Below are positions 14,958 through 17,080 of a stretch of DNA of 40,352 nt, piece by piece. The translations under genes and the position numbers were made by a program. The notes under the pieces were generated by a model. The model ran no database searches, was not told the origin of the DNA, and saw only the letters and a list, made by a program, of their open reading frames with translations. Every line of letters begins with the position of its first letter. The first letter of the stretch is position 1. This stretch comes from Escherichia phage Dewey: sequence record PQ850600.1. One strand, 5' to 3'.

Positions 14958-15181
14958 CTTTATCTAATGTTGCTGCTCTATATCAAACTTTAACGCAATG
15001 CTGCGCAACTTAAGTGACTGTCAGGTTGATAACAGACACTCTTTTTTGCATGATTCCTTTAGACCATCACAATTGATGAAGAATCATGAAAAGAAGAACT
15101 CTTCTAAAGTCTTTGCTCGGCCTGACGTCACTCTTACCAGTTAAGTTTGCAGCATCTCAAAACCTGCAAGGTAAAAGTATA

Positions 15182-17080
15182 ATGTCAGACATTACACCCA
15201 ATGTTGTAGTGAGTATGCCTTCGCAACTCTTCACTATGGCTCGTTCTTTTAAAGCCGTAGCTAATGGAAAGATTTATATCGGGAAAATTGACGCTGACCC
15301 GGTAAACACTGAAAACCAGATTCAGGTTTATGTAGAGAACGAAGATGGTTCTCACGTTCCTGTTTCGCAACCAATCATCATTAACGCTGCTGGATATCCG
15401 GTATATAACGGACAGATTGCTAAATTCGTTACCGTGCAAGGCCATTCTATGGCTGTTTATGATGCCTATGGTGCTCAGCAATTCTATTTCCCAAACGTGC
15501 TGAAGTATGACCCGGACCAGGCATTGCCAGCATTTAAGGCTGATTTGACTGGTCCTGATGGTGCTGACCTTGTTGGTTATGGAGATTCCACTGTCGAGGC
15601 AGAGTTAGACATCCTGACTACATCTAATGGGTGGTACGTAACTCCTGATCAGTTCGGCGCGAAGGGTGATGGCACTACCGATGACACAGCGGCGATTAGT
15701 GCGGCAATTGCTGAGTGTGCTTCTACAGGGAAAACATTGCTCCTGCTTAATAAACGCTATGTGTGGAATGGGCCAACCATATCCACCGATAAAATATCCG
15801 TTATGGGCGTCCGTCGCCCAAGCCCTGACGCGACGCTATCCAAGCTGGAAAACGGCAGCATCATTGTCGGTACCATGATATTTTCCGGAACTCGTGTTCA
15901 GGTGCAAAACTTTGGTGTAGACCACGGTTCAGCCACATTCACTTCTGGTGGTGATGCGCTAGTGCTTTCCGCAACTGAAAAGAATGGGCTGTTTGGTATC
16001 ATCCGGAACTGTGTAGGTCTTGGAAGAAACTCATCTGACGCTTACCATGCAATTCTCTGTGAGGGTTACAAATACTCAACGGTGAGAGATATCATTGGCT
16101 GCCAGAACTTATATGGCTATGCACAGAAATGTAATTATTCCGTATCAAGCGGTGTTGTAGTAAAAAACAACCAAAACGGAATAATCATCAAATCAGACAG
16201 TGTATTTGGCGATGGAAGCCAATCAATTCTTAGTGATGTTGTTATTGATGGTAATGGATTAACATCTATTGGCGTCTGGGTTTTCTCGCTGGATGCACAA
16301 CTTCAAAAAGTAAACATAAGTAACGTGACCTCGTCTGGTTGCTCTTATGATATCGTAGTGCAGGCTGCTGAGAACGTCATTAATGAAATTAATATTAATA
16401 ACGTAGCTGCGAGTTCATCACGCATTGCATCAATCTGCCTGGCTGGAACTGCAGTTGATAAAATTTACACAGCCAATATCAGCAATGTTGCTATAGGTGA
16501 AGCAGCGGGAATGCTAATAGATGCCCAGACATGTAACTTCCTTAACCTGACAAACGTAACTGGACGAATAACAAACGAATCAACGCATGCTAACGACTCA
16601 ATAAACATTGGAGCATTAGTAGGAAGCTCTAACATCAGCAACGTGTTCCCTACCATCAACTACAGTCAGGATGTACTTGCTGGCATTACCTATCTTAATA
16701 ACTATAAAAACAACACGCTTACCAATTATAAGGCGAACGTGTTTGGTGTTGGGGCTCCGAAACCAGGTTACGACACGCAAAACATTGATACCAATGTCGG
16801 AAGCGTGTACCTGAGGAGCAGTGCAACTAACTCTTCATTCCTGAGGTTAACGCCACTTAGTAACTCATCCATTACGACGCTTAACATCACCACTCAAGCA
16901 GGTGGAGTGATAAGCCCGGGTTACACATGGTGGTTACAAAACGCATCACCATCATTCACGCTGTCTATAGTTCCATCATCAGGAGGTTACATCGTCACTT
17001 CAGGCAACTCTACCAAGGTGCTTAGCGGTGGAGACAAGATAGGATTCATGTTCGACGGAGCGACATGGATTCAGATTTGA
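15182..17080 (+). CDS. tailspike protein: P22-family head-binding domain plus distinct beta-helix receptor-binding domain
   Basis: From ATG 15182 (AAGG RBS upstream): [37 protein letters not shown]...VLKYDPDQ matches the conserved N-terminal domain of P22-like tailspikes; C-terminal part has the [15 protein letters not shown] pectate-lyase-like motif and is visibly AT-rich. Confidence 0.85.

Follow-up and report, generated by a model that had tools for sequence, protein, structure and literature searches.

A conserved, predicted twin-arginine-type extension in frame with the O16-specific tailspike gene of the P22-like Escherichia phage Dewey

Introduction

Could the tailspike gene of Escherichia phage Dewey encode, besides the virion protein, a second form of the same enzyme that leaves the cytoplasm by twin-arginine translocation (Tat)? 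The question is raised by the open reading frame (ORF) at 15086..17080 (+ strand) of the sequence record PQ850600 (40,352 bp, analysed over its whole length and called the window below), which runs 32 codons in frame (15086-15181) upstream of the methionine at 15182 and can be read as a long form of 664 amino acids or, from Met 15182, as a short form of 632. The initial annotation, made from the sequence, had pointed out this extension and its likeness to a twin-arginine signal peptide, had considered it probably untranslated, and had described the remainder of the gene as a P22-type head-binding domain fused to a low-GC receptor-binding domain.

Dewey, Huey and Louie are temperate Lederbergvirus (P22-like) phages obtained on an E. 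coli K-12 host whose O16 O-antigen had been restored, and they do not plate without O16 (PMC12243541). The region 14900-17300 is 100% identical in the Escherichia phages CurroJimenez (Bas106) and Louie, 99% in Huey and 98.7% in APC_JM3.2, and the O16 O-antigen dependence of the phages with the identical gene is taken from published work (PMC12243541, PMC11990801). The ORF lies directly after the gene for a gp16-like ejection protein, inside the phage structural module, and is the O16 O-antigen-specific tailspike gene of Dewey. As set out below, we consider it slightly favoured, with a probability of roughly 55%, that this gene has two starts and gives, in addition to the virion tailspike, a minor Tat-exported isoform. 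The features on which this reading depends are as follows.

15086..15181, + strand: 32-codon in-frame extension, predicted Tat-type signal peptide (from substitution pattern, motif conservation and rule-based features)
15086-15109, + strand: n-region MKRRTLLK (from the sequence)
15110-15142, + strand: h-region, 11 residues (from the sequence)
15143-15157, + strand: c-region KFAAS, where signal peptidase is predicted to cut after Ser24 (from the sequence)
15158-15181, + strand: linker QNLQGKSI (from the sequence)
15168..15171, + strand: Shine-Dalgarno-like AAGG, 10 nt upstream of the internal start (anti-Shine-Dalgarno duplex -3.9 kcal/mol)
17078..17080, + strand: stop codon TGA (from the sequence)

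Results

Conservation of the extension as coding sequence

Related loci were drawn from IMG/VR, and 21 of them, in which the match ran through the extension, fall into three types (A, B and C); two more types (D and E) were found in species-representative genomes.

Type A: Dewey and relatives (IMG/VR loci)
Type B: MNRRSFFKSIASFVALTPLSSLSNKSNRIAH-M (IMG/VR loci)
Type C: [M/V]-[D/N]-RRLFFKT[I/L]ASLS[A/T]VIPF[S/Y]SISK[F/S]SNRMTN-M (IMG/VR loci)
Type D: Serratia, MDRRQLIKGFLSFIGGSTVASAAWA, then KYKSGP-M (species-representative genomes)
Type E: Proteus hauseri, MNRRQLISKLFTGTLASLFGVKVFGHLKEKD-M, adjoining an ejection-protein gene (species-representative genomes)

Between Dewey and a diverged type-A copy (L106/L124), 8 of the 96 nucleotides of the extension differ, all eight changes being synonymous and none non-synonymous (proportion of synonymous differences, pS, 0.33; of non-synonymous differences, pN, 0). 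This pattern has a probability of 5e-6 under random placement and belongs to the tailspike frame, the other two frames giving pN/pS above 1; the neighbouring head-binding domain has pS of 0.39-0.46 and pN/pS of 0.06-0.14 in the same comparison. An antisense ORF was rejected as the cause of the third-position variation, every antisense frame containing stops. Moreover, types B and C, both 93 nt long, give an in-frame pN/pS of 0.4-0.5 when compared with each other, against about 3 synonymous to 24 non-synonymous changes in the other frames, and the 108 nt upstream of the extension are unalignable between them.

The five types, which come from Escherichia, Salmonella, Serratia and Proteus, all have M-x-R-R-x-hydrophobic-hydrophobic followed by a hydrophobic core, in frame with the tailspike. 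M1, R3 and R4 are invariant in types A-E, and K8 and P18 are invariant only within A-C, with type D also having Lys at position 8. A small-x-small site stands at residues 23-25 in types A-C (AAS, SLS and SIS) and, as read directly from the sequence, in type D (AWA). Two further type-A variants (P0012 and P0013), found when 1.84 billion representatives were searched, differ by conservative substitutions in the core and have the canonical A-x-A site, and a Salmonella Kentucky fragment bears the type A extension. A word-indexed profile search with the extension, a query too short for this tool, returned three candidates with one match (Salmonella). With a substitution pattern characteristic of coding sequence and a Tat-type pattern kept across five types and four genera, the extension is very probably translated and under selection, so the view in the initial annotation that it is probably untranslated is not supported.

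The extension stands before many different receptor-binding domains, in ORFs of 499-941 amino acids. Six plaque-forming phages carry it (Dewey, Louie, Huey, Bas106, APC_JM3.2 and JEP4), and among 5,426 complete E. coli genomes about 66 have it in prophages (4 with type A, 18 with type B and 44 with type C). Loci that differ in their head-binding domains at pS of about 0.3 share a 100% identical type-A cassette, which indicates that the cassette moves by recombination.

Features of a Tat-type signal

Peptides were screened with a rule set of our own, which required RR-x-hydrophobic-hydrophobic-K close to the N-terminus, 11 or more uncharged residues and a mean hydropathy of 1 or more. Of the 1,580 peptides that begin with Met in all six frames of the window, only the one at 15086 fits, with a twin-arginine motif, a core and a candidate cleavage site, which bears out the resemblance to a twin-arginine signal peptide noticed earlier. 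Among 400,000 random upstream regions of equal composition a single one yields an in-frame Tat-like extension, and on this frequency, together with the five independent types, a chance origin was rejected. The sequences agree with the Tat consensus S/T-R-R-x-F-L-K as KRRTLLK in Dewey and as NRRSFFK, DRRLFFK, DRRQLIK and NRRQLIS in types B-E. The tripartite n/h/c organization was found by the same rules, with an uncharged core of 11-16 residues and a mean hydropathy of 1.1-1.7 as measured in types A-C, the hydrophobic stretch of types D and E being read directly from the sequence. A PHROGs search with the extension alone gave no match, and in the limited collection of literature searched there was no description of such a signal on a phage tailspike, so that it is apparently undescribed so far. 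Judged from the sequence, it is reasonably probable that the extension works as an export signal.

Two proposed in-frame starts

Of the best 150 representatives of the head-binding family, about 146 have their start exactly at the Met equivalent to 15182, and in classic P22-like phages, for example Sf6, a stop codon directly precedes this Met. The internal Met is kept in all five extension types with a Shine-Dalgarno-like element before it (-3.8 to -5.6 kcal/mol), for which types B and C use AGG, a rare arginine codon. At the extension start, the Shine-Dalgarno element of the Serratia type is strong (-6.6 kcal/mol), and in some type-C loci (L093-L097:4001) GTG replaces ATG there, with initiation still permitted; these GTG-start loci have 24 more open codons upstream of the GTG.

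The databases are divided over the start. It is placed at the extension in the Pharokka-type records of Bas106, Huey and JEP4 and in the GenBank E. coli protein P0001 (184 member sequences), and at the internal Met in APC_JM3.2 and in every prophage copy examined from RefSeq and the Prokaryotic Genome Annotation Pipeline (PGAP). The model of the tailspike in the Sf6 virion begins at residue 4, and the conformation of residues 4-16, which lie at the interface with the tail hub, differs from protomer to protomer (PMC9728967). With the N-terminus of the anchor placed at the tail hub, a 32-residue hydrophobic addition is unlikely in the virion form. The conserved internal start and the hub contact in Sf6 together lead us to infer that the short virion form is the major product and the long form a minor one. 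Since the extension appears to be translated, the gene most likely has two in-frame starts, and we think it somewhat probable that both 15086 and 15182 are used.

Discussion

Proposed explanation

In the explanation we prefer, the gene consists of three exchangeable pieces, a 5' cassette with a putative Tat signal (about 14978-15181), a P22-type head domain and a beta-helix depolymerase module. Initiation at 15182, the canonical family start preceded by AAGG, would give the 632-amino-acid virion tailspike, and weaker initiation at 15086 would give a 664-amino-acid precursor. The Tat translocon would carry this precursor, already folded as an enzyme, to the periplasm, where it would be cleaved after about residue 24 (Ser24). 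There the exported form might, speculatively, shorten O16 chains before or after their ligation. With shortened O16, infected or lysogenic cells could adsorb fewer O16-dependent phages, or chain length could be modulated as proposed for WceF of Pantoea stewartii, which is compared with Dewey below. The assignment of periplasmic O-antigen trimming, as receptor destruction or superinfection exclusion, to the exported form is tentative. It is more doubtful still that some temperate P22-like phages encode a Tat-exported tailspike isoform that trims O-antigen from the periplasm in lysogens or early in infection, possibly from a promoter of its own and as a receptor-destroying kind of lysogenic conversion or superinfection exclusion, and that such phage genes are also the evolutionary source of WceF-type enzymes.

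Several observations weigh against this explanation. The extension ATG has almost no Shine-Dalgarno element in types A-C (+1.0 to -2.9 kcal/mol; Dewey -1.0), and the h-region of type A is short, with 11 uncharged residues. The hidden Markov models of Tat signals in Pfam and NCBIfam (PF10518 and TIGR01409) gave no match even at E <= 10, a weak negative, these models being short and filtered, and no small-x-small site is evident in the type E sequence. The 8:0 result comes from one pair of diverged sequences, the changes within type C are distributed over the codon positions as 3, 2 and 4 with no clear third-position bias, and selection on the extension could serve something other than export. 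Furthermore, the extension is a minority trait, most P22-type tailspike genes being without it, and 41 of 80 such genes have a stop codon directly before the Met. The position of the Sf6 N-terminus, by analogy, argues that the long form is not the virion form and does not show that a long form exists.

The plainest alternative is that the extension is an untranslated leader, open in frame and signal-like by accident, and that only Met 15182 is used. It would fit with 15182 being the canonical start and the one that PGAP always picks, with the weak Shine-Dalgarno element at the extension ATG, with the openness for at least 25 codons of about 20% of random upstream regions, and with the location within a strongly folding palindrome, for which a role at the RNA or DNA level is conceivable. 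However, a leader of this kind leaves unexplained the eight synonymous changes against no non-synonymous one in this frame only, and five types keep frame, length and the arrangement of arginine pair, hydrophobic core and cleavage site next to non-coding DNA that is unalignable. Nor does it suit the rarity of Tat-like extensions in random regions or the palindrome, which is missing in types B and C and whose base pairs the synonymous changes do not follow. We therefore regard it as highly improbable. If the extension is translated, 15086 could instead be the only or main start, the hydrophobic N-terminus not serving for export but being retained, for example as a transient membrane tether or a handle for assembly or chaperones, or being trimmed in the cytoplasm before the virion is assembled. 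Coding selection on the extension, the long form annotated in Bas106, Huey, JEP4 and P0001, and the strong Shine-Dalgarno element of the Serratia type would all be expected in that case. Yet the conserved features are precisely Tat-like (the arginine pair, a moderately hydrophobic core, the small-x-small site, and P18 in A-C), the internal Met with its Shine-Dalgarno element is kept in all five types, in Sf6 the canonical N-terminus is taken up by contacts at the tail hub, and about 97% of the family is without the extension, which means that the anchor domain works without it. A sole or dominant upstream start is thus quite unlikely.

Another alternative accepts the signal as functional and differs from the two-start, Tat-export explanation only in the beneficiary, otherwise overlapping largely with it: the signal would be mainly a bacterial or prophage trait, carried by a tailspike on its way to a WceF-like domestication and selected in lysogens, whereas free phages such as Dewey would carry it passively and gain nothing from it in infection. 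Prophages account for most copies, WceF shows that bacteria use Tat-exported tailspike-like enzymes, a promoter-like site precedes the extension, and O-antigen acyltransferase genes adjoin several prophage copies. Against this, four plaque-forming phages that were isolated independently share a 100% identical cassette, and recombination has placed it before various anchor alleles and receptor-binding domains in intact P22-like genomes. We consider this restriction to lysogens unlikely.

DNA upstream of the internal start

The interval between the gp16-like gene and the tailspike Met contains four further features.

14977..15069, + strand: left palindrome arm and left end of the conserved extension cassette, junction about 14978 (arm alignment, fold and identity jump)
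15074..15189, + strand: right palindrome arm, overlapping the extension coding sequence (arm alignment and fold)
15014..15048, + strand: terminator-like hairpin GTGACTGT...ACAGACAC, then TCTTTTTTG (read by eye; weak, the consensus scan did not call it)
15026..15054, + strand: sigma-70 promoter-like TTGATA-17-CATGAT, 9 of 12 consensus matches (consensus scan)

The alignment of one palindrome arm against the other scores 49 (shuffled sequences 20.6 +/- 3.9, maximum 36), and 14958-15200 folds as RNA into one long hairpin with a minimum free energy of -67.5 kcal/mol (z = -5.1). The identity to L103/L105/L108 rises from about 0.3 to 1.0 at 14978-14986. In subtype A2 the inner stem survives (z = -2.05, with one compensatory pair 15055/15082) and the outer part is lost, and types B and C have no comparable global hairpin (z = -0.62 and -0.66), so the long palindrome is a feature specific to the type-A cassette. 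As a general cause of the conservation of the extension, the palindrome was rejected, being missing in B and C, with the synonymous changes of A2 not tracking base pairs. Speculatively, the palindrome might mask the extension AUG in read-through transcripts; the comparison of the promoter-derived short RNA with the read-through RNA for a transcript-specific unmasking of this AUG gave z = -1.35.

The -10 hexamer of the promoter-like site ends 31 nt before the extension ATG, and the alignment places an equivalent TTGATC-17-TAAAAT at equal distance in type C loci. By its consensus match, this site could drive expression independent of the late operon; the terminator-like hairpin with its T-run overlaps it (15014-15054). 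As a homologue of P_ant it has a mixed context, mnt adjoining in JEP4 and ZH063 and an ant-like gene lying between in strain E4. An Rfam scan of the whole window matched no family.

The anchor and the receptor-binding module

The rest of the tailspike is composed of the following parts.

15182..15520, + strand: head-binding domain of the P22 type (virion anchor), residues 1-113 of the short form, with the DPDQ junction motif at its end (PF09008 and matches to Sf6 and P22 in PDB)
15521..17077, + strand: O16-type receptor-binding module with a short linker/cap, a right-handed beta-helix and a C-terminal beta-sandwich (AlphaFold, Foldseek and tblastn)
15656..15685, + strand: cap motif of the pectate-lyase-like beta-helix (within the PF12708 match at amino acids 189-440, and a weak PF12218 match)
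16001..16798, + strand: AT-rich beta-helix core, GC 0.407 (0.419 at codon positions 1+2, GC12, and 0.383 at position 3, GC3; GC scan)

The Pfam family Head_binding (PF09008) matches long-form amino acids 33-145 from end to end (1-113 of 113, E = 8.6e-66), so the domain starts exactly at Met 15182, as the initial annotation had it. Sequence matches in PDB extend over short-form residues 1-182 for Sf6 gp14 and only over residues 1-114 for P22 gp9, the similarity to the P22, Sf6 and HK620 tailspikes being restricted to these N-terminal parts (1-114/182), and Megablast against classic P22-like phages covers only about 15174-15530 at about 85-93% DNA identity. The AlphaFold model of residues 116-632 has a mean predicted local distance difference test score (pLDDT) of 87.6, consists nearly entirely of beta-strands and shows a right-handed beta-helix with a C-terminal beta-sandwich. 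Its top Foldseek matches are the HK620 tailspike, phi29 gp12, Phi92 colanidase, CBA120 TSP2 and fungal and bacterial beta-helix glycanases, at 9-15% identity. The P22 endorhamnosidase (gp9, about 125-666) gave no sequence match beyond residues 1-114 and is outside the top 50 Foldseek matches. The pectate-lyase-like motif noticed earlier is the cap motif, which is kept in the homologues P0002-P0005; the PF12708 match around it is marginal (27.3 bits for a gathering cutoff of 27) and is backed by the predicted fold.

By tblastn, the receptor-binding module is 53% identical to that of Bas105 (Kayfunavirus) and Bas82 and 33-35% identical to ten more siphovirus records (nine BASEL phages and DUEC01), including Bas70-73 and Bas77-80, the shared region beginning at short-form residue 117; among 5.8 billion proteins it has only 11 relatives. 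Followed along the sequence, the identity to the other loci changes sharply at two junctions, about 14978 and about 15525, and beyond the second it falls to random against other extension-bearing loci. That the tailspike is a mosaic of a conserved P22-type anchor and an unrelated, horizontally moved beta-helix module is therefore virtually certain, and the earlier reading of a different, beta-helix-type, horizontally acquired host-range domain is upheld, the module being 33-53% identical to tailspikes with other anchors. This mosaic structure is not new. It was published for the identical Bas106/Dewey/Louie gene, where homologues of the receptor-binding domain were described in O16-dependent siphoviruses, a Kayfunavirus and a Gamaleyavirus, joined to differing anchors, with horizontal exchange as the explanation (PMC11990801, PMC12243541).

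The supposed low GC content of the receptor-binding domain stands only for a part of it. The head-binding part has a GC of 0.434, the receptor-binding part 0.448, the whole gene 0.443 and the window 0.480, and the gene is within one standard deviation of the phage genes (0.484 +/- 0.047). The first 360 nt of the helix (15641-16000), with a GC of 0.508, are the richest part of the gene, and the segment 16001-16798 is in the 2nd percentile of 800-nt windows, being low at codon positions 1+2 as well as 3; residues with AT-rich codons (F, Y, M, I, N and K) make up 0.338 of it, against 0.265 genome-wide. The GC of the gene is accordingly non-uniform, as had been expected, but its pattern does not follow the domain boundary. 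As evidence of horizontal transfer GC was rejected, since it does not change stepwise at the junction and is equally low in the head-binding part; homology gives the evidence instead. The homologues in Bas105 and Bas71 have a matching GC dip along the domain, though their genomes have about 52% GC, and the AT-rich core is therefore a family-wide trait of the module.

Neighbouring genes and related loci

Upstream of the tailspike, 12330-14957 encodes the gp16-like DNA-transfer protein of 875 amino acids with a lytic-transglycosylase-like N-terminus, the homologues of which PGAP names 'lytic transglycosylase domain-containing', and this gene has a strongly skewed composition (GC12 0.569 vs GC3 0.349). 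Downstream, on the minus strand, 17320-18513 is a 397-amino-acid ORF with tyrosine-integrase-like motifs; its equivalent in Bas106, which does not lysogenise K-12, is annotated only as 'hypothetical protein'. A UmuD-like gene is inserted just 3' of the tailspike in Huey (L003:5332-5811) and APC_JM3.2 (L002:5437-5733), and is not present there in Dewey, Louie or Bas106.

In the prophage of E. coli A30 (L004:771-4205), a second, truncated head-binding fragment (3604-3798) lies upstream of a type-A cassette, together with remnants of Arc and HicB genes and an IS66-family element, a scar of an earlier tailspike replacement in the immI region. The adjoining segment (L004/L005:4205-6442) has the identical type-A cassette before a 745-amino-acid tailspike with a different receptor-binding domain, and in PigCaeca_1 the gene for the 745-amino-acid tailspike adjoins genes for an SGNH hydrolase and an acyltransferase, likely for O-antigen modification. 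In addition, protein P0135 (533 amino acids) has an unrelated N-terminal region of 168 amino acids fused before the head-binding domain, and the genomes of Arsenophonus endosymbionts contain several head-binding-domain copies each (L174-L193).

Significance

What is new here is the extension, the mosaic tailspike itself being textbook and published knowledge. If the Tat signal is functional, a virion structural protein would have a second role as an exported enzyme, temperate phages would have a new way to remodel the host surface beside the O-antigen modification genes gtr and oac, and bacteria could gain biofilm enzymes of the WceF type ready-made from phages. Start-codon annotation is affected as well, Pharokka-type pipelines and PGAP disagreeing for this gene family, and in the design of recombinant tailspikes a long-form construct would include a hydrophobic export signal.

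Comparison with known systems

With P22 gp9, Sf6 gp14, HK620 gp9 and the CUS-3 endosialidase, the Dewey tailspike shares the PF09008 head domain, the DPDQ junction and the combination of an anchor with an exchangeable beta-helix depolymerase, and P22-family tailspike genes likewise follow a gene for a gene-16-like ejection protein. The receptor-binding domains of P22, Sf6 and HK620, however, are unrelated in sequence to that of Dewey, and those genes have no in-frame extension. The O16 tailspikes of the BASEL phages (Bas105, Bas82, Bas70-73 and Bas77-80) resemble it in the homologous pectin-lyase-like module (short-form residues 117-632), the dependence on O16 (PMC11990801) and the AT-rich core, and differ from it in having PF18668-type anchors instead of PF09008 and no Tat-like extension reported or seen.

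The closest counterpart in design is WceF of Pantoea stewartii, which has a 28-residue Tat signal, a P22-tailspike-like head domain, a neck and a trimeric right-handed beta-helix, and which cleaves the exopolysaccharide stewartan, its loss leading to a larger polymer (PMC7949094). The long ORF of Dewey has the order of WceF and its Erwinia and Pantoea homologues (Tat signal, P22-like head, beta-helix), and the head domain of WceF (PDB 6TGF) matches that of Dewey from chain residue 48 with E = 9.7e-9. A derivation of the extension from WcaM was also considered and set aside, no similarity being seen and WceF being the better architectural match. WceF differs in that it is encoded by a chromosomal gene in an exopolysaccharide synthesis cluster, whereas the Dewey gene is in a phage structural module, and in that it has an extra neck domain, no virion role, presumably no internal start and a distant head domain. 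Considering the non-chromosomal context and the only distant head match, we regard the long ORF of Dewey as WceF-like in design and not as a member of the WceF family. For the use of two starts, the comparison is with the lambda holin and antiholin S105/S107, where two in-frame starts in one gene give two products of different fate. These two products differ by about two residues and in membrane topology, whereas the difference proposed for the two forms in Dewey would be a whole export signal and the compartment.

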